A stretch of 32,000 bases of DNA. Source: Candidatus Lokiarchaeum ossiferum. Its GTDB lineage: Archaea > Asgardarchaeota > Lokiarchaeia > Sigyniarchaeales > Promethearchaeaceae. A program made the position numbers and the translations under genes. Within the stretch, counting starts at the first letter, position 1. The number at the start of each line of letters is the position of its first letter. The DNA is taken from positions 2,370,001 to 2,402,000 of the forward strand of contig CP104013.1 of assembly GCA_025839675.1 (NCBI GenBank), read 5' to 3'. Of this stretch, positions 6,372 through 27,513 are shown piece by piece. The notes beneath the pieces are model-generated. The model made no database searches and was not told the origin of the DNA. It saw only the letters and a program-made list of their open reading frames with translations.

Positions 6372-6950
6372 TTATAATTTAAAATCAGAAAAAATTTGCC
6401 GCATTGTTTTCATCAGTTGATTGAGACTAACATCATTAAAGAAATAACCCCAATATTTCGAAATTTGCAATAGAAGATGGATATATTGATCAGCATATTG
6501 TGGTTGCTGGAAATCAGCTAATAAAAGATATCCAATACATTCATAATTCAATTTGATCTGTAGGATTACCATTGTTTGTGTTGTATCCCAAAGAAAAAGT
6601 TGTTTGGAAGAAGGTAAATTGCGAGGAAGAACTGATTTAGAATGTGAAAACTCGAAATCTTCAAACATATAGCAGGTGATTTGACTTTTATCTATTATAT
6701 CGTAGTATTTGATTTTTTTAGGAGAAGTTAGGGTAAAAAAGAATTCTAAACTTTTTTGAATCATAATATTCCGATTAGTTAGAGTTGATATCTGCCTCAT
6801 GAAATCTAAAATGATTTCCTTATCAGCATTTTTTTTTAGATTCTGAACCTCATTACTGATTATATTATTTTCCTTCTCAGAGGTTTGAATAGTCATTTGT
6901 TTTATTTCTCCTAGATAAATTAGGAATTGTAAACTAAATAAAACTTTCAA
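6372..6950 (-). CDS. Hypothetical protein (possibly GAF-like); true start may be ATG 6896
   Basis: 192-aa ORF with no competing ORF, convergent with the kinase gene across a 3-nt gap. No motif I can name. CIGYLLLADF is only vaguely GAF-like. An internal start MTIQTSEK at 6896 follows GGAGAA. Confidence 0.45.
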   Translation of the reverse strand: MKVLFSLQFLIYLGEIKQMTIQTSEKENNIISNEVQNLKKNADKEIILDFMRQISTLTNRNIMIQKSLEFFFTLTSPKKIKYYDIIDKSQITCYMFEDFEFSHSKSVLPRNLPSSKQLFLWDTTQTMVILQIKLNYECIGYLLLADFQQPQYADQYIHLLLQISKYWGYFFNDVSLNQLMKTMRQIFSDFKL

Positions 6951-8608: not shown

Positions 8609-9673
8609 ATGAAAATTTTACTTACAGGTGCGTTTGGAAATGTTGGTTTAAGTACTTTGGACGAACTCCTTTCTCGGGGATATTATGTGTCTGTATTTGA
8701 ATTGGATACACCCAAAAATCGAAAATTGGCTCATCACTATGGAGATCAAATTGATATGATATGGGGAGATCTAAGAGAATTTACCCAAGTTGAAAAAGCG
8801 GTGCGTGATGTAGATATAATTCTTCATGTAGGTGCAATAATTCCTCCATTAGCCGATAAATTTCCCGAATTAGCCGAAGCAGTAAATGTAGGGGGAACTA
8901 AAAACATTTTACAAGCGATGGCTCAACAACCAATCCCCCCCAAAATAGTTTACACTTCTTCAATTTCAGTGTATGGCGATAGAAGACAAAATCCCTTAAT
9001 AAAAACCGAAGATCCACTAAAACCAAGCAAACATGATCTCTATGGACAGCAAAAATTGAAAGCCGAACGGCTTGTACGCCATTCAGGCTTAAGCTGGTGC
9101 ATCTTTCGATTAACTTATATTACTTCTATGGATAAATTGGACTTAGATCCCTTGATGTTCGAAATGCCTCTTGAAACGTGTATTGAGATAGCCGATACCA
9201 AAGATGTAGGGCTTGCTTTAGCCAATGCTGTTGAATCGGAAGATATTTGGGGTGAGATATTAAATATTGCAGGAGGACAAGCATGTCGTACAACATTTGG
9301 AGAATATTTAATAAAAATGCTGGATCTGTTTGGTTTAGGATATGATCGATTCCCTGCAAATGCCTTCTCCAATGAAGAATTTCATTGTGGATTTATGGAT
9401 ACTCAGAAATCACAAGAATTATTACATTTTCAACGTCAAACTCTTAATGACTATTACAAGGAAGTGGCTAAAAAAGCTAAACCCACCAGATGGTTAGCTA
9501 AATTATTCCAACCCATTGTCAGAGCAGTTATCGTAGGTAGGAGCCCATATTACAAAATAAAACGAAGAAAATCTCCAGCTCGAATGACCATTGGCCAGTA
9601 TTTGAAACAAATCAAACGCACCTATTTGATTATGAAGCGTTCAATTGAAATTGAAGATACAATTACAGTTTAG
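8609..9673 (+). CDS. NAD-dependent epimerase/dehydratase (extended SDR) with a basic C-terminal extension
   Basis: MKILLTGAFGNVGLST is a Rossmann GxxGxxG at the N-terminus, and the active-site YxxxK is YGQQK. I prefer ATG 8609, preceded by GGTGA at 8599-8603, over the ORF-track start 8546. The last ~60 aa (RWLAKLFQ...KIKRRKSPARM...) lie beyond the usual SDR fold. Confidence 0.85.
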   Translation: MKILLTGAFGNVGLSTLDELLSRGYYVSVFELDTPKNRKLAHHYGDQIDMIWGDLREFTQVEKAVRDVDIILHVGAIIPPLADKFPELAEAVNVGGTKNILQAMAQQPIPPKIVYTSSISVYGDRRQNPLIKTEDPLKPSKHDLYGQQKLKAERLVRHSGLSWCIFRLTYITSMDKLDLDPLMFEMPLETCIEIADTKDVGLALANAVESEDIWGEILNIAGGQACRTTFGEYLIKMLDLFGLGYDRFPANAFSNEEFHCGFMDTQKSQELLHFQRQTLNDYYKEVAKKAKPTRWLAKLFQPIVRAVIVGRSPYYKIKRRKSPARMTIGQYLKQIKRTYLIMKRSIEIEDTITV

Positions 9674-9678
9674 ATTCC

Positions 9679-9695
9679 TTTTTTTTCGGTTTTTT
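9679..9695 (+). terminator. Oligo-T tracts after the epimerase gene
   Basis: T8 (9679-9686) and T6 (9690-9695) lie within 25 nt of the TAG stop (9671-9673). Confidence 0.4.
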
Positions 9696-9702
9696 CCATA
9701 TT

Positions 9703-9909
9703 TCAAACGTGAATCTTCAAAATATGTTTAAACGCGGGATGCGTAAGACACAAATCCTTATCAATTATTTTTTGCTTCAATTCATGAAATTGCTCTGTTA
9801 AATCTGCCGCAATAAGATCCAATTCACAATGATCACATACATTAAATTGTTCTCCTAAGAGATTTGTATATATTGTTGTTCCATTTCGGTTACAAAATTC
9901 ACACGTCAT
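9703..9909 (-). CDS. Small zinc-ribbon protein (CxxC...CxxC), hypothetical
   Basis: MTCEFCNRNG...NVCDHCELDL provides two CxxC pairs. The ORF track extends it to a TTG start at 9963. I prefer ATG 9909, which places the first CxxC at the N-terminus. Confidence 0.45.
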   Translation of the reverse strand: MTCEFCNRNGTTIYTNLLGEQFNVCDHCELDLIAADLTEQFHELKQKIIDKDLCLTHPAFKHILKIHV

Positions 9910-10250
9910 TTTTATATTTCCCCAAAGTAGTACTATGAACAATTTTTCCATCAAACTAATCAAAGATAGACAGTCTTATGATTTATTGAATTTGTAAAAC
10001 AGATCTCGAGCACTCAAAAAATACATGATCATTTAAAATCCAATGATAATCCAGCGATTACATCATTAAAAGCAATAGGATAAGTTGCTTGGAATTAAAT
10101 ACGGATCATAGATATCAAAACTCACAAAAAATTTCCAGATTCTATACAAGTTATCTTAGTTTAAATGACATTTCTTTATACAAAAATCAAGATCTTTTGA
10201 CAATAGTAATTTTTAATAATCAAATCATTTAAAATTGTAATTTCAGATAT

Positions 10251-10258
10251 ATTTATAA
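10251..10258 (+). promoter_or_regulatory. TATA box for the giant surface-protein gene (leaderless geometry)
   Basis: ATTTATAA is centred about 26 nt upstream of ATG 10281, with no SD-like sequence in between. This supports 10281 rather than the internal ATG 10338 as the start. Confidence 0.35.
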
Positions 10259-10280
10259 CAGCAAGCAAAGGTCATTTCTA

Positions 10281-13200
10281 ATGAATTTGGGATTAATTTA
10301 TTATAAATTTGGATTTAGAGGGCAAAAATTTATAAAAATGAGTGTTTTGATAATAATCTGCAGTCTTTTTCTATCGAAATACACAAATTTACCTTTGATT
10401 TCGCAGCATGACGACTCAGACGATTCACCGCAAATACATATAGTCAATGAATTACCCAACCAAGATACAATCGAACCCTCTGCATCGTTATTGTCATACA
10501 CATCCAATAATGTTTCCCTTTTTAACGTCAGCGAGTCAATTTTTAGTATAGCGCCGCAAACGTCCTTAGATATTGATTCCGAAAATCTCACCCTCGAAAT
10601 TCCTTCTGGCTGGGACTTTGAAAATGCGAGAATGAATATTTCGGATCTATACAAATCATGGGAAGTAATACAAAATCAGAATATTACCGGTTCGGGAGAA
10701 TTTTGGGATTTTGATACTAATATACCCTTCGTAGATCCTAATACTTTATATTTTATTGGAGACTCCACAACGGGAAATCTTAAACTTAATGGAAGAAGTA
10801 ATAAATACTCTTCATATTTTGATGGAGATTATGCTTCTTGGTCCCAGACAGTTACCAATCCAGAAAATGATCTTCAAATCTATGAAAGTGAGTTGATTAG
10901 AGAGAATTCTAATCAGACACTGCTTCAAAATGATTTTTCAGTCAATCCTTTCTGGCAACCCTTACTTAATTTTCCTTATGGGGGAACTAATGGAACATCT
11001 ATTTATGAAGCAGAATATGACCCATCGTCAGAATATTTATCTACTTATATTAAGGCAGGAAGTAATGAACTTTCCCTAGGAAATCCATCCGTAGGGTGGC
11101 AAACTAATTTTACTAATCCTAATTCACTGTCTTTTAAAGCAAATCGTTTTGAATTAACTGTTTCTTGGAACTTAGAAAGTATAGACCTTGAAGCCGAGGA
11201 TAACTTATCAATAATCATTCGTATTGATGATCAATATGTGGATGGTAGGATTGATGTGGACGGGAATACCTATTTAGATAATGCAACTGAAATCACCATT
11301 GAAAATTCCGTAGTAAGTGGTGTACTTGATCATGATACTATCACCCGGACTTTTGATATTACAGAGATGATTGATTCATCAAAAGAGTTTCACACTATTG
11401 ATTTTGGAATTTGGTTAGAAAATATTGATGAAACTAATGATGAAGTTCGAGTCAATTTTGCTGCGCTTGAGATCAAGGCAATTGAAGAAGACCAATATAA
11501 AACAGGGGAATTATCTTTTACTTGTGAAATTGATATGGATAAATATATTAATTTTGTAGATGACTGGCAATTATTCTACTCTTTTTCTAATTCAACATCT
11601 GTTGATTTTCATCGAATAGGTTATGTATCAGACTATTTTTCTTCATTAATAGGGACTCAGCGGATAAATGTGAATTTGTCATCCCATTCACGATCTTTTC
11701 TAAATCAGCAAGAGTATCGCTTTTCACTTGGTTTAGTAGGGGCAAATAATAATACAACTCTAGAAAAAGATACCCTTTTTGTATATTTTGATGATATTTC
11801 ACTATGTCCTATTTATAGATCCACCAATTTTTCAAAAGCTCAACTTCAAATATTCAACGGTACAGGATATGAACAAGTTGTAGAATCTTCCTTTGATTTT
11901 TTAGAATCTGTCCATAACAATTACATAAATGCAAGCTTTCTTATTAACAATCCCGACTATGCAAATTCACAATTAAATTTTATTAGTTCCTTGTCAGTGA
12001 ATAATTTTCAAGAAAATTTAGCACAGGCAGATTTTTTTATTGATGTTAATGATTTAACCAATGGAAATGAAATCAAATGGAATGTATCTTATAATAATTC
12101 AGATACCTTCACGCATTTTTCCTTGAATAATTATGAAAATTTTAAGATATCTTATTACAACTTCACGATTATTGATCTCCCAGCCTTAGATTCCTTAGGA
12201 AAAGATTCTATTGATTGGGACTTTCGAGACTATTATGACCCTTCCAATACAACCCCAAATTATGCAACGGCAGTTCATACGAATGGTACCCTAAGTAGTG
12301 GTACACATCAGAATGTAACAATTGTTAATGCAACGAAATTGGAGGATTTTTATATTAATGGAACATGGATATTGAAATTTCTATCGCAGAATTATATTGA
12401 GGATTTAAAATTGAAATCTTCAACGGGTTCAATTATACTGCCAAAAGTGTATTTCGGAAATGAAACCAAAATTAAAATCAATCAAATTTTTCCATCAGAT
12501 TTGACGGGAAATTATAGAACTGAAATCAGGAATGCAAGCGATATAATAATCTCTTCTTTTCCAAAATTTAATTCAAGCATTGTAGGCAATCTTTCGTTGG
12601 ATTGGAGTGTTCCGAATTTGTTACCAGGCGAATATAAAATAGTTGCATACTGGAATGATTCAACGACGGAAAATCAACAATTTTCAAGAGTGGGATTTCT
12701 TACCTATGATTTTGAAATATGGGGTCAAACCAAGGCAAATTTACTTAGAAGCCCAGATGTTCTGAGCCCATCAGACAAGGGAACGTTCTACTTTAATTTT
12801 ACTAATTATTTTGGGAATACCTTATCCGGTATCGAGCCGTATGTTACTCTTTATTGTTTGAATACGAGTAATAATTGGGGATTGGAATGGTCACCTTACC
12901 AATACTTGGTGACTGGGGTTATAGAGAATCAAACAGATGGATCTTACGGAAATTATTCACTCGAGTTTCAAACTCGCTATGTGCCAGATGGAGCCTACAA
13001 TGTATCAATTATTATCGAAAAACCATTTTATGATAGCCAATCTCTTCTTTCATTAATCAATATTACAGGATCCGAGATGTTAATTGATGTTATTTCAGGA
13101 GGTTTTAATTTAAACGCCACCCATGCTCTATTGGATTCCAATAATATTCCATATTTGAATGATACAAGTCATACTTCAATAGTCCTATATTTATATGACA

Positions 13201-16200
13201 CTTGGAATTATCCTTTGGAAAATGGGTTAATTTCAGGAACATATAATGGATCTGACAGGTCATTTTATGCAATCGATTTGTATAAAAATTCTCAAAATGA
13301 TCAAGATCTTGGAAAATATGAATTAACTTTTGATACAACGGGATTAAACGCAACAAATCCTGCCATCGGAAATTATAATTATTCCTTAACCCTATCTATC
13401 TCAGCTGAAGGATATAGTTCAATAAATCTTGAGATTTCCAGCAATATACTACCAATTCCAACAGAATTAGCATTATCAACAATTAATTCGGTATATGAAG
13501 GAGAGTTACTGGAATTGTTTGCAACTTATTCTAACATACTCAACCCGAGTTCCCCAATTTTATTGAACAATGCAATTTTAACATGGATTTTACAAAATTC
13601 GACTCATTCAAATTTAATGAGTGGATTTTTTGAGAATGTTTTCTCGGGAATGTATGAAATAGAACAGAATCTCTCCCCAACTTTACAACCTGGAACATAT
13701 GAACTAATTATTAATGGTAGTCAAGAAAATTGTGCTTTTGCTTCAAAGACAATTTCTAATTTCAAAATTTTATCTAAAAACAAGACCTATCTTAATATTG
13801 GTGGATATGAAGGGTTGCAAATTGGGACTACGATGACTATCACTGCAGTATTAGGAATAATAAATGGAACAGTTTTACCAAGTCAAGAAGTGACTTTTAA
13901 TTTAAAAAATGGTGAAGATTATTTAATTAATATCATCGAATATACGAATGAATTTGGGATTGCGTCAGTATCACAACCACTTTACCCCTATTACGCAGAT
14001 TTAAATTTGACATTAGAAGCCGTTTATGAAGGAGGTCCTACTATGAGAGGTATTTCAGATTCAATAGAGAATATTCATATTAAAGGAAAAAATGAAGTAA
14101 ATCTGACAATTTCTTCAATATCCCCAATACGAGTGGGATATTCCCCCATTATATCACTATCACTGTCAATTGAGAATGTAGAAGATTACTCTGAATATTT
14201 TATTACTCTTTCAGGATGGTATGAAAATAATTCTCAAACTTATATTGTCAATCAACAATTACTCGTGAATTCTCACGGGTTAACGTCTTATGAAATCCCT
14301 CAAATAGACGCAGGTTATGATAATTTGACTTTCTTTGTCTATTTTACAGAAACTGAGATTATCTCGTATGCATCCAAATTTGAAACATTCGGAATTATTG
14401 CAAAATGGGAAACAAATCTGACGATATCACATTATCCCGAGCAAATTCGACCCGGATATTATTTTGAATACGATATCGAAGCAAAATTTTTAGATCAATC
14501 ATGTCCTGAATCATTTTTCCAACTCCCTGTTGAAATAAACTATTATTATTCACAAACACATATCACCCAAATACTATATTTTGATGAAAATGGGAATATT
14601 TCAGTTCAAATTTTAGTTCTTGATGAATTTCAAGGTGGTTTCAATATTTCACTTTCGTTTTCGGGTTCAGAAAAAATTGATCTCGCAGAATTTCAATTCA
14701 ACTATTCAAGGGTTCTTCCAAAGTGGCAATTAGAGTTTGAATTTGAAATAGTTTCTGATTATTTTCAAATAGGGTATGAAGCTGAAATTCTCATTTCTGC
14801 AGCCTTTGAAAATGCATCTTGTACAGAAAATATCTATGGAAAATCCATTTTCGTTCAAATATCCTACCACAATCACTCAGATCTCCAAGAAATTTATTTT
14901 AACCTTCAAAATCAAACATATCTTAACTTTCTAATACCCCAAGTTGAAAAAAACACGCTCAACTTATCGGTAAGCTTCTTGGGTACAAGTAAAATTAATC
15001 CAAGCCAAAAAAATGAATCATTTGAAATTAATGAAAAGTGGAAACCATTACTGAGAATTTCTCCAGAAAAACCAAATTTGCGTATGGGAGAAACAATAAA
15101 TATCTTGATTTCTGCCTCAATATTTGATTCTCAGTTTTCTGGAGATTTTGAATTAAATTTCCCAATAATATTTTCCATGGTGTACGATCAAAATACGATC
15201 ACTTCTGAAATAACCCTTGATTCAGACGGGCAATATTCGGTAGATATTCAAGTTCCAATAATGAACAGTCCAATATTAAATATCACAGCAATTTTTTTGG
15301 GATCAGCTAAACTGCAACAAGCAATCATTTTTACATCATTTGATATTCTTCCTCAGTTATTAACAAAATTAACATTACTATCTCCTCCAACGATTTCTGA
15401 GCTCCAAGGAAGATTTTTGAACTTTAAAATTCAACTATTTTCATTGCCCAATAATGAAACACTGGAAGATCAGCAAGTTGTTTTTATCTTAAAACAAAAT
15501 TCAATTATTTTAGACAATTTTACACGAGTTACTGATGAGGAGGGAATTGTGGAATTGAGTTTAACAATTGAAGAAGCGGGAAGTTATACTTTAGAGTATT
15601 CCTATTTAGGTCATTCCATTTTTATCCCATTAATGGATCAAATTCCAATTGAGATCAAAATTGAAGACCCCTTTGAGTATTATATTTTAGATAATCTAAT
15701 CCCCATTTTAATTAGCCTTTCCTTGACATCAATAATCATTGTAAGTTCATATAAATTTGTTTATATCCCAAGAAAACGTAAAAGAGTTAAAGATCTAGTT
15801 GATATTAGAACAAAATTTAATGATTTAGAGAATTTGCAACATCTTTTTATTATTAGCAAGGAAAATGGATTAACTTTATTTTCCCATTCCTTTTCTGATA
15901 AACGCATTGAAGAAAATTTAATAAGTGGATTTATTTCCGCAATATCTTCCTTTGGCGTTGAGTTAGGAGGGCGAGTTAAACAAAATGCAACTGAATCAGA
16001 TGAAGTATCAAAGTTGAAAGAACTTTCTTACAACCAATTTAAAATAATAATTGTAGAGGGGAGTCTTATGCGGATTGCATTATTATTATTAAAATCTCCA
16101 AGTCCCTCGTTGCAAACTAACGTTAAGACTTTTCTTACATCCTTTGAAACTACGCATACAGAATTTCTTTCAAAATGGCATGGAGCAATACCGGATAAAG

Positions 16201-16718
16201 AACCAATTCAGAGAGCTTTGGAAAAGTATCTCTTTGTCCATTTCATTTATAATTACAAATTGATACTTACTCGCTTGCCAGACTACGAGAGAAAATTAAA
16301 AAGTAACTCAAATACTATAAAAATTCTCTCAGTTTGCAGAACATATTTTGGAAACTTATTCACAATGAAAGACGTTATTGAACATATGTTGACCTACGAG
16401 ATAGGAGAAGTTGAAACGTTTAACATTCTATTGAAATTGATGAAAGATAATCTATTTATACCTCTAAATACCCAAAACCAAGAGCTGGTTTTAGAATATT
16501 TACCATCCATAGAGGATTTGACTTTAGAGGAGCAAATAGTATTAAAATATATCTATGATGGACACACAGACATTTTAAAACTTTCGGATTTAACCCACAT
16601 CCCCGTGATTATTGAACCGATACATCAACTTCAAAAAAAAGGGTTGGTAACAGAGTTAAATGAATTAACTGAACTCGGAAAGAAAATTGCGATTGTTCTA
16701 AATTTAGTCAACAAGTGA
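10281..16718 (+). CDS. Giant (2145 aa) type I membrane surface protein: signal/anchor, ~1760-aa sequon-rich ectodomain with Ig-like repeats, one TM, and a cytoplasmic longin/roadblock-like plus tandem winged-helix tail
   Basis: Uninterrupted 6.4-kb ORF. The N-terminal hydrophobic segment is MSVLIIICSLFLS. I count about 62 N-x-S/T sequons by hand before the TM. The single TM helix LIPILISLSLTSIIIVSSYKFVYI (about nt 15694-15765) is followed by the positive-inside stretch PRKRKRVK. The tail is at 15768-16715. Confidence 0.9.
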   Translation: MNLGLIYYKFGFRGQKFIKMSVLIIICSLFLSKYTNLPLISQHDDSDDSPQIHIVNELPNQDTIEPSASLLSYTSNNVSLFNVSESIFSIAPQTSLDIDSENLTLEIPSGWDFENARMNISDLYKSWEVIQNQNITGSGEFWDFDTNIPFVDPNTLYFIGDSTTGNLKLNGRSNKYSSYFDGDYASWSQTVTNPENDLQIYESELIRENSNQTLLQNDFSVNPFWQPLLNFPYGGTNGTSIYEAEYDPSSEYLSTYIKAGSNELSLGNPSVGWQTNFTNPNSLSFKANRFELTVSWNLESIDLEAEDNLSIIIRIDDQYVDGRIDVDGNTYLDNATEITIENSVVSGVLDHDTITRTFDITEMIDSSKEFHTIDFGIWLENIDETNDEVRVNFAALEIKAIEEDQYKTGELSFTCEIDMDKYINFVDDWQLFYSFSNSTSVDFHRIGYVSDYFSSLIGTQRINVNLSSHSRSFLNQQEYRFSLGLVGANNNTTLEKDTLFVYFDDISLCPIYRSTNFSKAQLQIFNGTGYEQVVESSFDFLESVHNNYINASFLINNPDYANSQLNFISSLSVNNFQENLAQADFFIDVNDLTNGNEIKWNVSYNNSDTFTHFSLNNYENFKISYYNFTIIDLPALDSLGKDSIDWDFRDYYDPSNTTPNYATAVHTNGTLSSGTHQNVTIVNATKLEDFYINGTWILKFLSQNYIEDLKLKSSTGSIILPKVYFGNETKIKINQIFPSDLTGNYRTEIRNASDIIISSFPKFNSSIVGNLSLDWSVPNLLPGEYKIVAYWNDSTTENQQFSRVGFLTYDFEIWGQTKANLLRSPDVLSPSDKGTFYFNFTNYFGNTLSGIEPYVTLYCLNTSNNWGLEWSPYQYLVTGVIENQTDGSYGNYSLEFQTRYVPDGAYNVSIIIEKPFYDSQSLLSLINITGSEMLIDVISGGFNLNATHALLDSNNIPYLNDTSHTSIVLYLYDTWNYPLENGLISGTYNGSDRSFYAIDLYKNSQNDQDLGKYELTFDTTGLNATNPAIGNYNYSLTLSISAEGYSSINLEISSNILPIPTELALSTINSVYEGELLELFATYSNILNPSSPILLNNAILTWILQNSTHSNLMSGFFENVFSGMYEIEQNLSPTLQPGTYELIINGSQENCAFASKTISNFKILSKNKTYLNIGGYEGLQIGTTMTITAVLGIINGTVLPSQEVTFNLKNGEDYLINIIEYTNEFGIASVSQPLYPYYADLNLTLEAVYEGGPTMRGISDSIENIHIKGKNEVNLTISSISPIRVGYSPIISLSLSIENVEDYSEYFITLSGWYENNSQTYIVNQQLLVNSHGLTSYEIPQIDAGYDNLTFFVYFTETEIISYASKFETFGIIAKWETNLTISHYPEQIRPGYYFEYDIEAKFLDQSCPESFFQLPVEINYYYSQTHITQILYFDENGNISVQILVLDEFQGGFNISLSFSGSEKIDLAEFQFNYSRVLPKWQLEFEFEIVSDYFQIGYEAEILISAAFENASCTENIYGKSIFVQISYHNHSDLQEIYFNLQNQTYLNFLIPQVEKNTLNLSVSFLGTSKINPSQKNESFEINEKWKPLLRISPEKPNLRMGETINILISASIFDSQFSGDFELNFPIIFSMVYDQNTITSEITLDSDGQYSVDIQVPIMNSPILNITAIFLGSAKLQQAIIFTSFDILPQLLTKLTLLSPPTISELQGRFLNFKIQLFSLPNNETLEDQQVVFILKQNSIILDNFTRVTDEEGIVELSLTIEEAGSYTLEYSYLGHSIFIPLMDQIPIEIKIEDPFEYYILDNLIPILISLSLTSIIIVSSYKFVYIPRKRKRVKDLVDIRTKFNDLENLQHLFIISKENGLTLFSHSFSDKRIEENLISGFISAISSFGVELGGRVKQNATESDEVSKLKELSYNQFKIIIVEGSLMRIALLLLKSPSPSLQTNVKTFLTSFETTHTEFLSKWHGAIPDKEPIQRALEKYLFVHFIYNYKLILTRLPDYERKLKSNSNTIKILSVCRTYFGNLFTMKDVIEHMLTYEIGEVETFNILLKLMKDNLFIPLNTQNQELVLEYLPSIEDLTLEEQIVLKYIYDGHTDILKLSDLTHIPVIIEPIHQLQKKGLVTELNELTELGKKIAIVLNLVNK
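13450..15670 (+). repeat. Seven tandem, diverged ~105-aa (~315-nt) Ig-like protein repeats inside the giant ORF
   Basis: Unit boundaries recur at about 13455, 13775, 14086, 14400, 14719, 15034 and 15350, with the array ending near 15660. Recurring unit-end motifs are AVYEGGPTMRGIS, SFSGSEKIDL, SFLGTSKINP, IFLGSAKLQQ and SYLGHSIFIP. Recurring unit starts are AKWETNLTI, PKWQLEFEF and EKWKPLLRI. The repeats are conserved at protein level only, not as DNA repeats. Confidence 0.6.
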
Positions 16719-18182
16719 ATTATTTGAAGTATTATTGGAACTATATTCAAACTTCACTTTCTTCACGAATAGTACCGCGATAATAAACATCAAACTCGCG
16801 AGAGGAAGGAACACTACTATAATTTGAGGATTTTCTGTATTTCCTTCAAAAATCAGCCCCGTGAAGAAATCACCGACAGCATACGCAATACTTAAGGCAA
16901 AAAGAAAACTTCCAAAATATGCCCCCGATTGATTTTCATTTTCATTTTGTTTCAAATATAATTGTTGCTTATCAACAAAATTACTAATGATTGGATTTGG
17001 TAAAATAAAACCGGGTACGATGCTAGCAATTATTCCACCAAGAACGAAAACAGCAATGGCAGAACGAATAATTTTAACCATAGGTATCAAAAATAACAAG
17101 CCAAGTATTAAAAATATAGCTGCGGCAGTAGAGGAAATTAAATAAGTCTTTTTTAATCCTTGCTTCTTAATGGTTTTTGACCAAAGGATAAAACCGATTC
17201 CAGCAAAAGGGGTTAAATATAAAGCAGCAAGAAAGAAATCTTCAGATTCTAACTCCAAAACATAGGTGAAAATGAAAAACATGATCTTTAAGATAATTTG
17301 TAACGAAACATTCCAAAAGAAAGAACTTAACAAATATCTTCGGTAGCCTAAATCTTTAAAAGGTGAAAGAAGTTGTAAGACAGTTTCTTGAATAGTCAAA
17401 TATTCTGTTGAAGCAATTTGCGTATTACTTTCAAGTTCAAAGTGAAATTTTTCATCGACGGAATAAAATGTAACAATCGTTAATACTCCAGATAGGAAGG
17501 CAAAGCCTATGGCCATCCAAGGAACGATTTTTAAAATGCGTTGACCATCAGGAGTAGTATGAAATATCGCAGTAGGATCTTCTAAAGTTCCTAAAAGAAC
17601 AATAGGAAGGAGAAAAGCAACGACCGAAGCAATAATGCTAAAAATTCCCTGAATTTTTGAGATTTGTACACGATTATGCACGGTTTGACTTTGTTCTGGA
17701 AGCATGCTCAAATAGGTGCTCCGAATAAGAGCATAAGAAAAATAAAAGATCAATAAAAACATCCACATTTGAATAGCAATATTGAAATCTTTAGATCCAG
17801 GAGCGTCAGCTTTGGGAGAATACCAAAGAAGAATGAAGGAAAAAACATATGCAGGTAGCCCTAACAGAAGTAATGAACGACGTTTGCCCAGACGATCAAC
17901 CTTTTTTCGGTCAGCAATTAATCCAGTAAGAGGGCAAGCGATCGCATTGATAATGAAACCTGAAGATGTTCCGATAGACACTAATATAGGGCTTAACCCA
18001 ATTGTATATACAAAATAAATCATAATCAAAGCCCCACAAAACGAAAAAGGCAAAATTTGACCTAAAATTCCTGCAGAATAGCCATATAATCGCGCTCCGT
18101 GCAATTCTCGCAAAGGTTTTTCTTTCGTATTTTTTGAAACTTCAACTTGATCTAACACAAAATAGGTAAAGTCAAAACTCAT
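16704..18182 (-). CDS. GPH/MFS_2-family transporter (paralog-type of 7040-8449)
   Basis: 492 aa with multiple TM helices. The GPH-type loop is GLIADRKKVDRLGKRRSLLLLG. Its 3' end overlaps the giant ORF's 3' end convergently by 15 nt (16704-16718). Confidence 0.8.
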   Translation of the reverse strand: MSFDFTYFVLDQVEVSKNTKEKPLRELHGARLYGYSAGILGQILPFSFCGALIMIYFVYTIGLSPILVSIGTSSGFIINAIACPLTGLIADRKKVDRLGKRRSLLLLGLPAYVFSFILLWYSPKADAPGSKDFNIAIQMWMFLLIFYFSYALIRSTYLSMLPEQSQTVHNRVQISKIQGIFSIIASVVAFLLPIVLLGTLEDPTAIFHTTPDGQRILKIVPWMAIGFAFLSGVLTIVTFYSVDEKFHFELESNTQIASTEYLTIQETVLQLLSPFKDLGYRRYLLSSFFWNVSLQIILKIMFFIFTYVLELESEDFFLAALYLTPFAGIGFILWSKTIKKQGLKKTYLISSTAAAIFLILGLLFLIPMVKIIRSAIAVFVLGGIIASIVPGFILPNPIISNFVDKQQLYLKQNENENQSGAYFGSFLFALSIAYAVGDFFTGLIFEGNTENPQIIVVFLPLASLMFIIAVLFVKKVKFEYSSNNTSNNSLVD

Positions 18183-18415
18183 TTAATCTCTAGGATTGCC
18201 AATTTTTAGCGTCGCTAGAACAAATAATCTCACAGTAAAAATTAGGCATCATTTCAGAATTACTATGCGGAACAATAGTTTTTTGCCTAAGAAATCGCTT
18301 GATTATTTGATTAATTAGTAAAAAGTTAGAATATTGCAGCCTTTTGACTTTTTTGAGATTGGGAACAAATGAAAATCTATCGATTATTCTTAATAGGAAT
18401 ATTCTATGACAGTGA

Positions 18416-18423
18416 ATTTATAT
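18416..18423 (+). promoter_or_regulatory. TATA-like box upstream of lysC
   Basis: ATTTATAT is centred about 26 nt upstream of roughly nt 18445. This would give a short leader containing GAGG (18449-18452) before ATG 18459. Confidence 0.3.
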
Positions 18424-18458
18424 CCAAGGGAATAATGATCTTACTATTGAGGAAAACT

Positions 18459-19919
18459 ATGTTGAGTAATTCATCCACCACCGTAAATTTAGATATTCAA
18501 GCAAAAAAGATCGCAGTTATGAAATTTGGAGGCTCGTGTTTCAAAAATGCAGAAGCATTCCAACAAATAGTTAAAATCACAAATCTTTATGATCAAGAAA
18601 AAAAAATATATGTTGCTTCAGCCCTTCATGGAGTTACAGATCAACTCATTCAAGTTACTGAATATGCAAGCAGTAAAAATACAAGAAAATTGGAAGAAAT
18701 ACTTGAGTCAATAAAACAAAGGCATCTTTCAACAATCCAAATGATTTTTAAATCTAACTTAGAACACCAGTTAGAAGCTTATAACGGTATAAAGAATTAT
18801 TTGGCAGAATTAAGTAAAGTTTTAAATGAAGTAAATGAATTTGGAATAATCCCCTATTTTATCGATTATATTGTTGCATTTGGGGAAAAAATGAGTACTT
18901 TTCTACTGCATTTATATCTGAAAATGAATGGCTTTCCTACCTCGCTGTTTATGGGAGAAGATCTTATAATTACTAATGATGAATTCAATAATGCATTCCC
19001 AGATTTACGATTTACCATTCACAGAGTGAATCAAAACTTACTTCCAATCTTAAACGATGCAAATACAAATCGGATTGCATGTATCACAGGATTTATTGGA
19101 CGAAATAAAATTGGATATACGACCACTTTAGGAAGAGGAGGAAGTGATTTTACAGCAACTATTATTGCAAGGGCTATTTATGCATGCAACCAGGAACACA
19201 AAATCAAGGTAATTTTGTGGAAAGATGTGGATGGCATGTTGTCAGCCAACCCAGAATTTGTTGATAATCCTACACTGGTCAAAAAATTAAATTATGCAGA
19301 AGCTAAGGAATTAGCATTTTTTGGGGCTAAAGTACTGCACCCAAAGTGCTTAGCTGTTATAGAAAATCAAAATATTCCTGTAGAAATCCGCCGATTTTCT
19401 TCTCCATCAAAAAAAGAAGATTTCTCGACAATATCAGAACTTTCGGATAATACAGATATGAAAGGTATTGGTTCTATTAAGATTGCTTCCATGATTACAC
19501 TCTCCTCCGCGGTAATGGTTAAAGAATCAGGATTTGTTGGGAAAATATTCTCAATTTTAGGGAAAAATAACATTAACATCAATTTTATAGCTCAAAGTAG
19601 TAGTGAAATAGCAATAACCTTTGTTGTTGATAAAAATGATGGAGAAAGAGCGCTAAATCTCTTAACCACGAGTAAAGATCTTCCAATTAAATGGATGGAT
19701 GTAAAAAAAGACGACATCGGAATTATTGCGGTAGTTGGGGAACATATTCACAAATCTTCCAATAAATGTCGTATTTTCCGTGCTTTAAGTGAAATTGATT
19801 TAGATGCAATTTCAATCTCCCAATGTAGCAATGGATTGAATATTTCTATCATAGTGCCAATAAAAAGAGTTCAAGAAGCGGCTAATGCAATTAATAATGA
19901 ATTTTCTACCCCAAATTAG
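18459..19919 (+). CDS. lysC: Aspartate kinase (monofunctional, C-terminal ACT domains)
   Basis: VMKFGGSCF is the kinase N-terminal motif and TLGRGGSDFTATIIA is the conserved aspartokinase motif. The C-terminal ~150 aa are ACT-like. I prefer ATG 18459 (GAGG 7 nt upstream) over the ORF-track start 18369, whose extra 30 aa are hydrophobic filler. Confidence 0.88.
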   Translation: MLSNSSTTVNLDIQAKKIAVMKFGGSCFKNAEAFQQIVKITNLYDQEKKIYVASALHGVTDQLIQVTEYASSKNTRKLEEILESIKQRHLSTIQMIFKSNLEHQLEAYNGIKNYLAELSKVLNEVNEFGIIPYFIDYIVAFGEKMSTFLLHLYLKMNGFPTSLFMGEDLIITNDEFNNAFPDLRFTIHRVNQNLLPILNDANTNRIACITGFIGRNKIGYTTTLGRGGSDFTATIIARAIYACNQEHKIKVILWKDVDGMLSANPEFVDNPTLVKKLNYAEAKELAFFGAKVLHPKCLAVIENQNIPVEIRRFSSPSKKEDFSTISELSDNTDMKGIGSIKIASMITLSSAVMVKESGFVGKIFSILGKNNININFIAQSSSEIAITFVVDKNDGERALNLLTTSKDLPIKWMDVKKDDIGIIAVVGEHIHKSSNKCRIFRALSEIDLDAISISQCSNGLNISIIVPIKRVQEAANAINNEFSTPN

Positions 19920-19945
19920 GTTTTTTTCTCTAACAGGTGATTCAT

Positions 19946-21244
19946 ATGACTAACAAAAAAACAGATAAAAAGTATAATTTTGAAACTACGGCGATTCATG
20001 GAGGTTATTTTGAAGTAGAACCAACTTCCCGATCTCGGACGGTTCCTTTATATCAAACTTCTTCCTTCACATTTCGTGACGACGAACATGCTGCAAACCT
20101 CTTTGCCTTAAATGAACCTGGAAATATTTATACACGTATTGGTAACCCCACAAACGAAGTTTTGGAACAACGAATTGCGCAATTGGAAGGAGGAATTGGA
20201 GCACTCGTTACAAGTTCTGGACAAGCAGCAGAGACTCTCGCACTACTAACTTTATTGAAACAGGGAGATGAAATTGTTTCCAGTTCAGAAATTTATGGAG
20301 GTACATATACACTTCTTAACTACACATTGGCTAATTTTGGAATAAAAACAATTTTTGTGGATCCGAATTCACCAGAAAATTTCTTGAAGGCTATTACAAG
20401 CAAAACCAAAGCAGTTTATTTAGAATCCTTAAGCAATCCCAAACTAAATGTCCCTGATTTGGAACAAATTGCAAATATTGCACATAATCATGAAATACCT
20501 TTAATTGTTGATAATACAATTCCATCACCTTATTTGTGTAATCCAATAAAATGGGGAGCGGATATTGTTTTGCATTCAACTACTAAATATATTTCAGGCC
20601 ACGGCTATGCCATTGGGGGTGTTATTGTCGACTCGGGTAATTTTGATTGGAGTCAATCTAATCACTATTCCTATTTTAATGACCCCGATCCATCATACCA
20701 TGGATTAAATTTCCATAAACATTTTGGTAATTCAGCATTCATCGCAAAGTGTCGTGTGCAATCACTTCGAGATCTGGGCAGTGCACCAAGCCCATTTAAT
20801 TCGTGGTTAACCTTGGTTGGATTAGAAACCCTTGCACTACGAATGGAGCGAACTTGTGAAAATGCAGAGAAAATAGCAAAATTTCTATTATCCCATCCAA
20901 AAGTCTCATGGGTTAATTATCCTTCGCTATATTCAGCGGAAAAACTCACTCACTTTAATAAATATCTTCCCAGAGGATATAGTGGATTGATGGGATTCGG
21001 TGTTAAGGGAGGATATGAAAGTGGCAAGAAATTAATCAATAACGTCTCATTAATCTCCCATTTAGCAAATATTGGAGATGCTAAAACACTAATCATACAT
21101 CCAGCGAGTACTACCCATCAACAATTGACACCTGAAGAACAATTGAATGCAGGAGTTAGTCCAGATTTTTTACGTTTATCCGTTGGAATTGAAAATATTG
21201 ATGATCTCATCCAAGATCTCAACGAAGCATTAAATTCGATATAA
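19946..21244 (+). CDS. metY: O-acetylhomoserine sulfhydrylase (PLP-dependent Cys/Met metabolism family)
   Basis: [26 protein letters not shown], and the PLP-lysine motif [12 protein letters not shown] prefer ATG 19946, preceded by AGGTGA, over GTG 19937. Confidence 0.88.
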
Positions 21245-21277
21245 TAATTTTTACCAACTTAAGGAAGAGGAAAACTA

Positions 21278-22393
21278 ATGCTCGGAACGAGATCAAAACA
21301 TATCCAATATGCAACTATTGCTACTCCAATGAATCCTTTAAAACTGGATTGCGGAAAGGAGCTAACAGAAGTAAGGTTAGCCTATGAAACCTTTGGAACA
21401 TTGAATCCAGTAAAAGATAATTGCATTCTTATAACACATGCACTTACTGGGGATTCTCATGTAGGAACACATGCAGATGAGGAAGAATTGAAAGGCTGGT
21501 GGCATGATTTTTTAGGGCCGGATTTAATATTTGACACAAATAAATATTTTATTATTTGTTCCAATATTCTTGGAGGATGCATGGGTAGTACAGGTCCAAC
21601 ATCCATCAATAAAGAAACAAATAGGCGATATGGAACAGAATTTCCTTTGGTTTCAATTCGAGATATGGTAAATGCTCAAAAAAGATTAGTCGATTCACTT
21701 AACATTTCTTGTTTGCATGCAGTATGTGGGGGATCATTAGGAGGAATGCAGGTAATGCAATGGGCAATAAGTTACCCAGATATGGTTAGAGCAGCAATTC
21801 CAATTGCAACCACACCTCGATTATCACCTCAAGGAATTGCTTTTAATGAGGTAGGAAGAAGAGCCATAATTAATGATCCTGCTTGGAATCGTGGAAATTA
21901 TTCAACAGATTCATTTCCGAGTCAGGGATTAGCCTTAGCCCGCATGATAGCTCACATTACCTATCTTTCTGATGAATCCATGAGAAATAAATTTGGACGA
22001 ATGCTTCGTAATACTGATGAATACCAATACTCCTTTGCACCAGAGTTTGAGGTTGAATCCTATTTGAACTATCAAGGAAATAAATTTATCAAGCGTTTTG
22101 ATGCGAATAGTTATCTTTACATAACAAAAGCCGTGGATTATTTTGACTTAGAAAAAACCTATGGAAGTCTTACTAAAGCATTCAGTGAAACCAACGCAAA
22201 ATTTTTAGTGATGGGATTTTCAACGGACTGGTTATACCCAATTTATCAAAGTAAAACCATTGTTTCAGCATTACAAAAAGCAGGAAAGGATGTTTCCTAC
22301 TGTGAAATTGACACAAAATTTGGACATGATGCATTTCTCTTAGAATATGAGAAAATGGCCCCCTTTCTGATTAATTTTTTGCAGAATATTTGA
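21278..22393 (+). CDS. metX: Homoserine O-acetyltransferase
   Basis: HALTGDSH is present. The nucleophile elbow is GGSLGGMQ and the C-terminal catalytic His context is FGHDAFLLE. Typical MetX length of 371 aa. GGAAGAGG lies upstream of the ATG. Confidence 0.9.
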   Translation: MLGTRSKHIQYATIATPMNPLKLDCGKELTEVRLAYETFGTLNPVKDNCILITHALTGDSHVGTHADEEELKGWWHDFLGPDLIFDTNKYFIICSNILGGCMGSTGPTSINKETNRRYGTEFPLVSIRDMVNAQKRLVDSLNISCLHAVCGGSLGGMQVMQWAISYPDMVRAAIPIATTPRLSPQGIAFNEVGRRAIINDPAWNRGNYSTDSFPSQGLALARMIAHITYLSDESMRNKFGRMLRNTDEYQYSFAPEFEVESYLNYQGNKFIKRFDANSYLYITKAVDYFDLEKTYGSLTKAFSETNAKFLVMGFSTDWLYPIYQSKTIVSALQKAGKDVSYCEIDTKFGHDAFLLEYEKMAPFLINFLQNI

Positions 22394-22418
22394 TTTCACT
22401 AAAAGGAAGAAAAGCAAC

Positions 22419-23003
22419 ATGAATAGCGAATACAGAAGTATTGCAGATATTATACCAGAGAGCTCAAAAGTGTTAGATTTAGGATGTGGGGATGGAACCT
22501 TATTAGAGTGTCTCCGTAGAGAAAAGAAAATTGTAGGCACTGGAATTGAGATATCTCCAAAAGGTGTTCAAAACTCCATTTCTAAAGGATTATCAGTTAT
22601 CCAGGGCGATCTTGAAGAAATCATCCCAAATTATTCAAATAATTTGTTTGATTTTTGCATTTTGGCTCAAACATTGCAAGAACTCAGAAATTCAGATCGT
22701 GTTATCCAGGAAATGTTGCGTATCAGTAAATTTACGATTATTGCTTTTAATAATATTGTTCACTTTCGTAACCGATTAAAAATTCTATTTCAAGGAAAGC
22801 TCCCTCAAACGAAAGAGTTACAGTATGATTGGATGAATACTAATATCATGTTTCTTAGTGTAAAAGATTTTGAAGAGTATTGTTTTAAAAAAAAAATAAT
22901 AATAGCATCTAAGAAATTCTTTTCAAAGGATAAAATTATCAAAAAATGGCCTAATTTGCGAGCTAAATCATGTATTTTTGTCATTAACAATATCGTAGAT
23001 TAA
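22419..23003 (+). CDS. metW: Methionine biosynthesis protein MetW (SAM-methyltransferase-like fold)
   Basis: VLDLGCGDGTLLECL...GTGIE...GLSVIQGDL...FDFCILAQTLQEL...QEMLRIS...LPQTKELQYDWMNTNIMFLSVKDFEEYC matches the MetW pattern along its whole length. It lies directly downstream of metX. Confidence 0.85.
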   Translation: MNSEYRSIADIIPESSKVLDLGCGDGTLLECLRREKKIVGTGIEISPKGVQNSISKGLSVIQGDLEEIIPNYSNNLFDFCILAQTLQELRNSDRVIQEMLRISKFTIIAFNNIVHFRNRLKILFQGKLPQTKELQYDWMNTNIMFLSVKDFEEYCFKKKIIIASKKFFSKDKIIKKWPNLRAKSCIFVINNIVD

Positions 23004-24892: not shown

Positions 24893-25234
24893 CTAGTTTT
24901 TCACTTGATATTCTATCTTGACTGGGCTATGAGGAAAAGACTCCAGCAATCCATTTAAACTCGATATGAATCCAAGAAGGGTTTTCATAATTAAATCTTG
25001 AACAAATGGTTTTATCTCGACAAGGAATTCTCCACATTTCATAATAACTTGTTTACCTTGGGGTTCTTTGGAAAATATTTCAAGTAAAATAACACGATCT
25101 TCAGTCACTTCATTTAATTCTGTAAAAAATCCATGACAGACATTTCCAAGGGTATTTAAAATAAAAGGTTTGGTAGCAATGCGCTTTCCATCGATATAGA
25201 GCTTTAATCCATATTTAAGGGCTTTTTTTTCCAT
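24893..25234 (-). CDS. Hypothetical protein (113 aa)
   Basis: Clean ORF lying 13 nt upstream of truA and 29 nt downstream of the PTA_PTB-like gene on the same strand. I recognise no motif. Confidence 0.5.
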   Translation of the reverse strand: MEKKALKYGLKLYIDGKRIATKPFILNTLGNVCHGFFTELNEVTEDRVILLEIFSKEPQGKQVIMKCGEFLVEIKPFVQDLIMKTLLGFISSLNGLLESFPHSPVKIEYQVKN

Positions 25235-26217: not shown

Positions 26218-26246
26218 AGAAGTCCAATCCAATTATTGAAAAAAAT

Positions 26247-27377: not shown

Positions 27378-27513
27378 TAACTTACCTCTTCTATGTAATA
27401 TGAAAAGAAACAATTAAATAAATTTTCCACTCTTGAAATAAAATCAATTCAACAAAAATGCTACTAAAGAGCAAGTGAAAAAGAAAAAAGAAATTCAAAA
27501 ATGAAAAATGTGC

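Follow-up and report, generated by a model that had tools for sequence, protein, structure and literature searches.

The gene NEF87_001973 of Candidatus Lokiarchaeum ossiferum B-35 lies within a 32,000-nucleotide (nt) stretch of contig CP104013.1 (GenBank assembly GCA_025839675.1, positions 2,370,001 to 2,402,000), which we refer to as the window and whose numbering is used for all coordinates given without another label. The window is archaeal chromosomal DNA with a G+C content of ~33%, and includes housekeeping genes for the RFC small subunit, GluRS and a tRNA pseudouridine synthase. The gene product (UYP45688.1) is annotated as a 'hypothetical protein' and is identical to the translation of an intact open reading frame (ORF) at 10281..16718 (+) encoding 2145 amino acids; in RefSeq the start is set at Met20, giving 2126 amino acids. 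The protein consists of a giant ectodomain, one membrane helix and a folded tail that, read inward from the membrane, comprises a basic juxtamembrane helix, a longin-type domain, a helical and winged-helix-like domain and, after a linker helix, another winged-helix-like domain. The same layout is present in the orthologue from Promethearchaeum syntrophicum MK-D1 (QEE16527.1 / WP_147663402.1, 1953 amino acids; NZ_CP042905.2, surveyed locus L004:3111-8972), which carries the label 'carbohydrate porin'. None of the data that we analysed support that label, and the present finding corrects it.

A signal-like hydrophobic stretch at the N terminus and an ectodomain of ~1780 amino acids together occupy positions 10281..15695 (+). 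The translated ectodomain is rich in Asn, Ser and Thr and appears to contain Ig-like repeats, with sub-threshold matches to the Ig-like Pfam families Big_1 and Big_3_5, while no Pfam FG-GAP match is found in the window protein. It holds 62 N-x-S/T sequons compared to ~29 expected from shuffled sequences (~2.1-fold; 35 per 1000 residues), and from this density we infer that the ectodomain is glycosylated. In P. syntrophicum, only a solute-binding protein has been found to be heavily glycosylated (PMC11284389). The single transmembrane helix (residues ~1806-1829, LIPILISLSLTSIIIVSSYKFVYI; 15696..15767, +) has its hydropathy peak at residues 1802-1820, and the segment at residues ~1802-1829 is the only strongly hydrophobic one in the 2145-residue protein apart from the signal-like stretch.

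The membrane helix is preceded by an acidic stretch and is followed by the basic stop-transfer sequence PRKRKRVK, which supplies six Lys or Arg residues among the first eight. This sequence is part of a juxtamembrane helix (tail residues 1-22; 15768..15833, +) that AlphaFold2 (AF2) places at residues 2-22 with a predicted local distance difference test (pLDDT) score of ~90. Across 29 homologues, the juxtamembrane region has a mean net charge of +2.45 and a family consensus of PRRxRR. The tail contains only one N-x-S/T sequon (NAT), located in an insert of the longin-type domain. Because of these distributions of charge and of sequons around the membrane helix, the sequence supports a type I, single-pass topology with the ectodomain outside and the tail in the cytoplasm. 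An earlier note on this DNA, prepared by reading the sequence alone, had likewise assigned the last 316 amino acids to a cytoplasmic tail beginning at nt 15768, directly after the helix and PRKRKRVK. The note also described the tail as not being of low complexity, which is consistent with its ordinary composition and with the 715 cluster representatives that match it at E ≤ 1e-3.

The alignment used for structure prediction comprised the window tail and 28 full-length tails (29 members in all), and it also underlies the family counts reported below. With this alignment, AF2 yields a model with a mean pLDDT of 83.8 and a predicted template modelling score of 0.68, whereas the single sequence of membrane helix plus tail gives a pLDDT of 40 and no usable model. 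In the first part of the tail, the model has a helix at residues 2-22, strands at 23-30 and 36-41, a helix at 49-70, strands at 84-88, 91-97 and 101-107, and a helix at 113-135. The longin-type domain corresponds to 15834..16172 (+), and its elements are predicted with pLDDT values of ~85-93 outside of an insert between the end of alpha1 and the start of beta3 (tail residues 65-82; 15960..16013, +). This insert has a pLDDT below 50 and is variable in length, as indicated by a drop in occupancy in the alignment. The most conserved element of the domain is the alpha1 motif LISGF(I/L)SAISSFG-E, and the invariant columns of the domain are G54, A58, F62 and G63. No Arg in the domain is invariant among the 29 members.

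The predicted elements thus reproduce the pattern of helix, hairpin, helix, three strands and helix from which a roadblock or longin fold had been proposed, and structure searches point to the same fold. When the model was compared with the Protein Data Bank (PDB) by using Foldseek, longin or roadblock proteins accounted for 50 of the 50 matches listed. These matches have E-values of 5e-4 to 6e-3, probabilities of ~1.0 for most, and target-normalised TM-scores mostly between 0.4 and 0.67; the E-values are modest because the match covers only about 40% of the three-domain query. The proteins include coat and trafficking components (zeta-COP, the sigma subunits and mu N-terminal domains of AP-1/AP-2, sedlin and other TRAPP subunits, Sec22b and VAMP7) as well as Fuzzy, the C-terminal domains of RagA/C, LAMTOR subunits, MglB, dynein LC7 and Roadblock2 of MK-D1. 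In the viral structure library BFVD, the best matches of the tail model are longin SNAREs of giant viruses. The AF2 elements exhibit the five-stranded antiparallel beta-meander with flanking helices in fixed order that typifies the longin/roadblock fold, and weak matches to Pfam Robl_LC7 occur in four of the 29 members (best E-value 3.4e-4). Sequence searches of Pfam, NCBIfam and the PDB with the window tail by itself returned nothing usable, including no Robl_LC7 or Longin match. The tail is therefore assigned to the longin/roadblock superfamily at the level of the predicted fold only, as it lacks a match of its own to a curated profile.

Longin domains have the order bb-a-bbb-aa and roadblock domains the order a-bb-a-bbb-a, such that the two are circular permutations of one another (PMC3747258). 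The tail carries an additional N-terminal helix (residues 2-22) ahead of beta1, which could correspond in position to alpha1 of a roadblock domain. In soluble paralogues described below, in which a homologous domain is fused to a GTPase-like domain, beta1 begins at Met1 and helices follow beta5, as in the longin order. Because these paralogue domains begin at beta1, the first domain of the tail is considered to be of longin type by homology, and the helix at residues 2-22 is presumably a juxtamembrane extension.

The second predicted domain of the tail (16197..16466, +; pLDDT ~86-95) begins with a helical segment at residues 144-175 (helix 144-160, strand 162-165 and helix 167-175) and continues into winged-helix-like unit A at residues 182-233 (nt 16311-16466). 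Unit A comprises helix 182-192, a short strand at 197-198, helices 200-210 and 214-226, and strand 230-233. It is separated by a linker helix (residues 235-249; 16470..16514, +) from winged-helix-like unit B (residues 250-316; 16515..16715, +), which has helices at 253-263, 269-276 and 282-290, a short hairpin marked by single strand residues at 294 and 300, and a final helix at 302-315. In unit B, the column G304 is invariant and L288 is nearly so. As modelled, the order of elements in unit A is that of a canonical winged helix, and the order in unit B is CheF or MarR-like. The two helix-rich units had been located previously almost to the nucleotide. When unit A was compared with unit B by using hhalign, and when each was compared with an ArsR-like tandem winged-helix family from neighbouring loci, no relation was detected, and because these comparisons are negative we claim neither an internal duplication nor an ArsR/MarR relationship.

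Weak Pfam matches to winged-helix families, whose positions are not listed, come from wHTH-PRTase_assc in six of the 29 members and from HTH_27, HTH_5, TrmB, MarR and HTH_IclR in one member each. Such matches would be expected if the tail were a membrane-tethered transcription factor that binds DNA at the membrane or after proteolytic release. Membrane-bound one-component regulators do exist in bacteria, and a set of Asgard clusters of orthologous genes (asCOGs) lists an 'HTH domain' of category K together with an NPRL2-like longin domain. However, in winged helices that bind DNA it is the third helix that reads the DNA, and in the tail this helix has a net charge of about zero in both units and occupies columns that are variable in the family consensus. 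The mean net charges of the surrounding regions are -2.6 for residues 140-234 and -1.1 for residues 250-316. With a net charge that is neutral to acidic and a third helix that is not conserved, the units are unlikely to bind DNA, and their sequences are more in keeping with protein-contact modules. Moreover, no protease gene is conserved near the giant gene in the surveyed orthologue loci, and many members of the family have the longin module without units A and B. A transcription factor is consequently a highly improbable identity for the tail. The proposal of the earlier note that winged-helix domains follow the longin-like domain is supported, in that AF2 predicts two such units with weak Pfam and CheF matches. 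Its suggestion of a MarR type is not, given a single MarR match in one of the 29 members with an E-value of 0.079, and the DNA-binding module that it contemplated finds no support in the charge or conservation of the units. The combination of a profile match with a basic, conserved recognition helix that marks MarR and other DNA-binding winged-helix regulators is absent.

A different role for unit B is suggested by a comparison of the family profile with PDB sequences, in which the C-terminal domain of CheF (7od9_C; E-value 0.0026, profile positions 242-311) is the sole match with an E-value below 0.01. The CheF C-terminal domain is built from three helices followed by a long strand and one more helix at its C terminus, dimerises via the strand, and binds phosphorylated CheY, whereas a DNA-binding role has not been described for it (PMC9126983). 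By extension, the tail might serve as a docking site for two-component or chemotaxis proteins, with unit B binding a phosphorylated CheY-like receiver. A che gene set is present in L. ossiferum along with 15 methyl-accepting chemotaxis proteins (MCPs) (PMC9834061), and NPRL2-like longin domains of Asgard archaea have been found fused to two-component domains (Liu et al.). Two signalling proteins are encoded in the window itself at positions 35-2263 and 4776-6368, namely an MCP in which dCache, HAMP, PAS and MCP signalling domains are recognised, and a PAS histidine kinase. This agrees with the chemotaxis genes and the chemoreceptor arrays that have been reported for the organism. However, these two genes are 4-8 kb away in a neighbourhood that is not conserved, and the CheF match is marginal and spans only ~70 residues. 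P. syntrophicum has an orthologue of the giant protein, yet many of the L. ossiferum chemotaxis proteins are reported to be absent there (PMC9834061). Although the predicted order of elements in unit B is the same as in CheF, we regard such docking as very unlikely.

To define the distribution of the tail, 1.84 billion representative sequences were searched exhaustively by using HMMER, and the 715 matches at E ≤ 1e-3 include 255 at E ≤ 1e-10 and 41 at E ≤ 1e-30. A word-indexed protein search recovered three matches with the tail and 10 with the alignment. The longin domain of the window protein scores 141 bits against the hidden Markov model (HMM) of the family, with a match that extends over the whole ~120-amino-acid domain bearing the L-SGFLSAIS-FG-E motif. 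No qualifying Pfam, NCBIfam or PDB sequence match exists for this longin-module family of 715 representatives. Organisms carrying the module belong to the Lokiarchaeota/Promethearchaeota and to the Hel-, Hod-, Heimdall-, Thor-, Hermod-, Sigyn-, Sif-, Atabey- and Jord-archaea, and a survey of GTDB species genomes, from which 80 loci were kept, is likewise almost entirely Asgard. A few contigs are labelled as coming from outside of Asgard and may be mis-binned. The full tail is found mainly in Promethearchaeota. Among ~150 listed representatives, ~45 share tail residues 1-314 and ~20 share residues 1-235, while most share only residues 1-141 and carry other C-terminal extensions.

Approximately 25 giant representatives (1900-2800 amino acids) share the ectodomain as well as the tail with the window protein and form one family, probably of orthologues; the orthologous proteins of Lokiarchaeia are ~1900-2300 amino acids long. 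Within this group, conservation amounts to 0.35-0.68 bits per column in the tail, with values of 0.45-0.68 in most members, compared to 0.15-0.5 in the ectodomain. The tail is therefore better conserved than the ectodomain, and selection acts on it. The earlier note had named a lack of conservation among homologues as a ground for rejecting its reading, and had suggested a survey for the tail fused to other ectodomains. Other large proteins have only the longin module in common with the window protein and possess unrelated ectodomains, including one (P0068) with FG-GAP integrin-alpha-like repeats. The note had also raised the prospect of the tail as a stand-alone gene, but the apparent cases are artefacts. 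In one candidate (P0001), frameshifts have cut off the end of a giant gene, and two others (P0002 and P0153) start at contig edges. In one metagenomic contig (L001:4786-10945), frameshifts that are probably assembly errors divide an orthologous giant gene into many ORFs, and directly downstream of it (L001:10959-17194) lies a further giant paralogue, likewise equipped with a longin module.

In most full-length proteins among the 60 matches listed, a hydrophobic helix is located ~25-30 amino acids upstream of the module. The surveyed loci contain 120 significant occurrences of the module, of which 41 have a transmembrane helix no more than 45 amino acids upstream and 27 are at the N terminus of soluble proteins. 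The remainder include fusions with HerA (DUF87) ATPases of ~880 amino acids and convergently encoded polytopic membrane proteins of ~860 amino acids with a C-terminal module. The alpha1 motif is kept across all of these architectures. In the HerA arrangement (L042-L067; for example, L053:6477-9134 on the + strand and 9217-11865 on the - strand), the module lies in the middle of the ATPase, the convergent protein has 9-12 predicted helices, and the neighbourhood is conserved in about 20 species of Heimdall-, Hod-, Thor- and Hermodarchaeota. The two proteins could form a membrane-ATPase pair that is joined by longin pairing.

The soluble carriers of greatest relevance here are ~300-amino-acid proteins in which an N-terminal longin module is followed by a P-loop domain with a GxxGxGK[ST] motif. 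A profile of the tail domain built from 149 sequences aligns by hhalign with the N-terminal domains of these fusions over 106 columns (probability 99.2%, E-value 1.2e-19). The aligned region starts at beta1, includes alpha2 and ends at a W-G motif common to both, and the fusions score 32-55 bits (mostly 44-55) against the HMM. Their C-terminal halves have weak Pfam matches to Arf, Roc and RsgA_GTPase, and they are named at NCBI as 'GTPase domain-containing', 'ADP-ribosylation factor-like' or 'Rab family GTPase' proteins. A search of PDB sequences with the longin-GTPase profile gave no match. The fusions are abundant in Lokiarchaeia (349 matches), and architectures of this general kind have been noted previously (Tran et al. 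2024, PMC10933270; Liu et al. 2021). In the metagenome-assembled genomes (MAGs) LW30_13 (L016 and L081) and H3B.172 (L015 and L069), a giant protein with the tail and an array of longin-GTPase genes are present together.

The genes for these fusions have a characteristic setting. In loci L068-L081 (for example, L068:7986-13209), two or three tandem longin-GTPase genes are followed by genes for a JAB/MPN deubiquitinase, a ThiF-type E1 and a UQ_con E2. This arrangement is conserved in many Lokiarchaeia, often with a Rab-like small GTPase gene nearby. The ubiquitin-like cluster is flanked by repeated paralogous genes (L073:5064-7436 and 11551-13938 (-), and similarly in L075 and L078) for polytopic membrane proteins of ~315-355 amino acids, whose C-terminal Cys-rich motif CLVCK...C..C...YC..C...CW.C looks like a RING or zinc-ribbon finger. 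These paralogues may be membrane-bound E3-like proteins. An 871-amino-acid longin-GTPase variant (L073:2385-5000, +) carries a C-terminal carbon-nitrogen hydrolase domain (Pfam CN_hydrolase, E-value 3.9e-8).

The adjacency of longin-GTPase paralogues to genes for JAB, ThiF-type E1 and UQ_con E2 proteins raises the idea that the tail is a sorting or turnover signal, by which an Asgard ubiquitin/ESCRT-type or coat-like machinery would deliver the giant protein, remove it, or package it into vesicles. Longin subunits of AP and COPI are among the top structural neighbours listed, and tandem winged helices are a building block of ESCRT-II. However, no ubiquitin or ESCRT genes are present near the giant gene, either in the window or in the surveyed orthologue loci, and the link is made through paralogues only. 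Also, neither EAP30 nor Vps25 is among the 16 Pfam families matched at E ≤ 0.1 by the 29 members. We consider a sorting function to be decidedly unlikely.

Longin and roadblock dimers act as platforms for small GTPases, with a dimer interface formed by alpha1 and beta3, and examples include MglB, SRX, the Rag C-terminal domains, Ragulator, TRAPP, Mon1-Ccz1, DENN proteins and NPRL2/3 (PMC3747258). Arf-like and Gtr/Rag GTPases are enriched in L. ossiferum, as are longin and NPRL2-like longin asCOGs, and the organism displays many complex surface proteins (PMC9834061). By analogy, the tail of NEF87_001973 may be a membrane-tethered longin platform that dimerises or recruits GTPases, to which we assign a probability of roughly 0.45. 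In this mechanism, the longin domain would pair via its conserved alpha1/beta3 face with a second copy of the tail or with one of the numerous soluble proteins bearing this module, the foremost candidates being the longin-GTPase fusions found in the same lineage. That tethered tails probably pair with each other or with soluble carriers is suggested by the conservation of the alpha1 motif across all architectures. Pairing would place a GTPase-type switch, or its regulator, beneath the site of the ectodomain, and units A and B might add protein-protein contacts or dimerisation as in NPRL2/3 and the CheF C-terminal domain. Information could then flow as outside-in signalling or as inside-out control of the position or clustering of the surface protein. 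The earlier note had listed recruitment of a small GTPase as one possible route, and this receives indirect support from the paralogues that join the same module to GTPase-like domains, although no small GTPase gene adjoins NEF87_001973.

Several observations weigh against a GTPase platform. No GTPase, roadblock or longin gene is located elsewhere in the 32,000-nt window, so the neighbouring small GTPases that the earlier note had suggested looking for are not there, and the orthologous giant genes have no conserved neighbours beyond closely related genomes. The name L. ossiferum does not appear among the best 120 longin-GTPase fusion matches. Where fusions do occur, their second domain is a very divergent P-loop domain that is GTPase-like by sequence. 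Dimerisation and GTPase binding are themselves ascribed to the tail by analogy with its structural relatives. The winged-helix assignment of units A and B is weaker than that of the longin domain, since it draws on AF2 secondary structure and weak sequence matches, and the Foldseek and BFVD searches with the tail model did not pick up these units. Finally, the occurrence of the module on HerA-type ATPases and polytopic proteins may indicate a general pairing module without a tie to GTPases.

Some of these same facts would be accommodated if the tail were a structural clustering module, without a nucleotide switch. Tails would pair with one another by way of the longin domain and the winged-helix units to form a lattice beneath the membrane, by which the giant ectodomains of a cell coat devoid of an S-layer are anchored, spaced or clustered. 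Dimerisation is obligatory for longin and roadblock domains (PMC3747258), the CheF-type C-terminal domain forms dimers via its beta strand (PMC9126983), and L. ossiferum lacks an ordered S-layer and has many protruding surface proteins, some of them clustered at sites of high curvature (PMC9834061). The lack of a GTPase neighbour and the carriage of the module by HerA ATPases and polytopic proteins also favour clustering. However, the closest soluble paralogues bear a GTPase-like domain, three folded domains that are conserved above the level of the ectodomain seem more than an anchor needs, and there is no sign of a lattice in the present data. Overall, a purely structural tail seems somewhat unlikely to us, and a platform that dimerises or recruits GTPases is the preferred reading.

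A broader version of the platform reading is that the module defines an Asgard family of receptors or adhesins, in which diverse ectodomains, such as giant Ig-like proteins and integrin-like FG-GAP propellers, are wired via a shared cytoplasmic longin module to soluble longin-GTPase switches, with the module of NEF87_001973 extended by an NPRL-like pair of winged helices. This generalisation is unlikely. If true, it would represent a prokaryotic forerunner of the eukaryotic signalling route from surface receptor to longin platform to small GTPase, and cell-cell contact could be coupled to remodelling of the cytoskeleton or membrane in the lineage that gave rise to eukaryotes. In eukaryotes, longin/roadblock platforms with small GTPases have a core role both in membrane traffic and in nutrient signalling, and they are expanded in Asgard cells that are internally simple. 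The tail described here provides concrete candidates, namely a longin platform on the inner tail of a giant surface protein in the cultivated organisms L. ossiferum and P. syntrophicum. Should the tail pair with switches, it would link an S-layer-free surface that is thought to mediate syntrophic cell-cell contacts to intracellular regulation, and would offer a possible origin for the longin and winged-helix architecture of the NPRL2/3 type. Even as a clustering device, the tail defines a large and almost exclusively Asgard family outside the coverage of Pfam and NCBIfam.

The remaining content of the window includes major facilitator superfamily (MFS) transporters, one of which is encoded by a convergent ORF (16704..18182, -) whose 3' end overlaps that of the giant ORF (stop codon at 16716-16718) by 15 nt. 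A methionine-pathway cluster at 18369-23003 encodes an aspartokinase with ACT domains, a Cys/Met PLP enzyme, a MetX-like alpha/beta-hydrolase and MetW. Three ORFs on the reverse strand have no Pfam match: 6372-6950 (-, 192 amino acids), 24893-25234 (-, 113 amino acids) and 25264-26232 (-, 322 amino acids). The last of these adjoins a gene for an Rce1-like CAAX protease (26247-27413).

The known systems closest to the tail in sequence are the longin-GTPase fusions, which have a homologous N-terminal domain with the alpha1 motif L-SGFL-AIS-F/IA-E and a W-G after alpha2, and which come from the same lineage and even the same MAGs. Unlike the tail, they are soluble, start at beta1, have no membrane helix, and carry a P-loop domain in place of the winged helices. 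The longin SNAREs (Sec22b, VAMP7 and Ykt6) resemble the tail in being membrane-anchored with a longin domain on the cytoplasmic face, with target-normalised TM-scores of up to 0.67. These proteins, however, are tail-anchored, with an N-terminal longin domain and, ahead of the membrane helix, a SNARE helix, and they have practically no domain on the extracytoplasmic side, whereas NEF87_001973 has its longin domain after the membrane helix, an ectodomain of ~1780 amino acids, and no SNARE motif. The C-terminal domain of CheF (PDB 7od9) has the alpha-alpha-alpha-beta-alpha order of elements that is predicted for unit B and matches it marginally (over 70 columns, as given above), but CheF has two N-terminal PH-like domains, is soluble, and binds the archaellum switch.

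Integrin alpha is a functional analogy, as it too combines a large ectodomain, one membrane helix and an adaptor-binding tail, although integrin tails are short unfolded peptides. A second functional analogy only is the Streptomyces conservon, which couples the membrane sensor CvnA, the roadblock protein CvnB and the small GTPase CvnD. There, however, sensor, roadblock protein and GTPase are individual products of a single operon, and the giant gene has no operon of that kind. The Roadblock/LC7-MglB proteins and Ragulator (LAMTOR) share the fold superfamily and the weak Robl_LC7 matches, and in Ragulator roadblock dimers are tethered to a membrane, where they serve as a GTPase platform (PMC3747258). 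The tether in Ragulator, though, is the lipid-modified LAMTOR1 rather than a transmembrane helix joined to an ectodomain. MglB differs in that no cognate MglA-like gene lies alongside the giant gene and in that the tail domain is, by homology, in the longin order.

NPRL2 and NPRL3 provide a precedent for the domain order, since they have a longin domain followed by at least two winged helix-turn-helix repeats (PMC3747258), and this order is reproduced by the AF2 elements of the tail. The earlier note had recognised no described architecture that joins a huge glycosylated ectodomain to a roadblock/longin-like module and winged-helix domains on the inside, and with respect to the longin and tandem winged-helix order this is not sustained. 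Longin domains of the NPRL2/NPRL3 class act on Rag GTPases. There is no evidence for sequence homology, as none of the 29 members has a Pfam NPR2 or NPR3 match at E ≤ 0.1 and no GATOR1 chain is among the PDB sequence matches at E ≤ 10. A chain of a complex containing GATOR1 (9o5d_C) aligns in Foldseek with a TM-score of 0.22 and a root-mean-square deviation of 13 Å. Also, NPRL2 and NPRL3 are soluble subunits of a cytosolic complex with DEPDC5 and are marked by a catalytic arginine finger in the longin domain, whereas the tail here belongs to a type I membrane protein. Asgard families labelled 'NPRL2-like longin' that occur in various fusions have been noted (Liu et al.), and the co-tabulated 'NPRL2-like longin domain' and 'HTH domain' asCOGs (cog.008476 and cog.000164) belong to an orthogroup common to L. 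ossiferum and P. syntrophicum. The supplementary table gives no gene identifiers for this orthogroup, which is thus not mappable to NEF87_001973. In the literature we found no earlier account of giant or integrin-like surface proteins that carry this longin module as their cytoplasmic tail.

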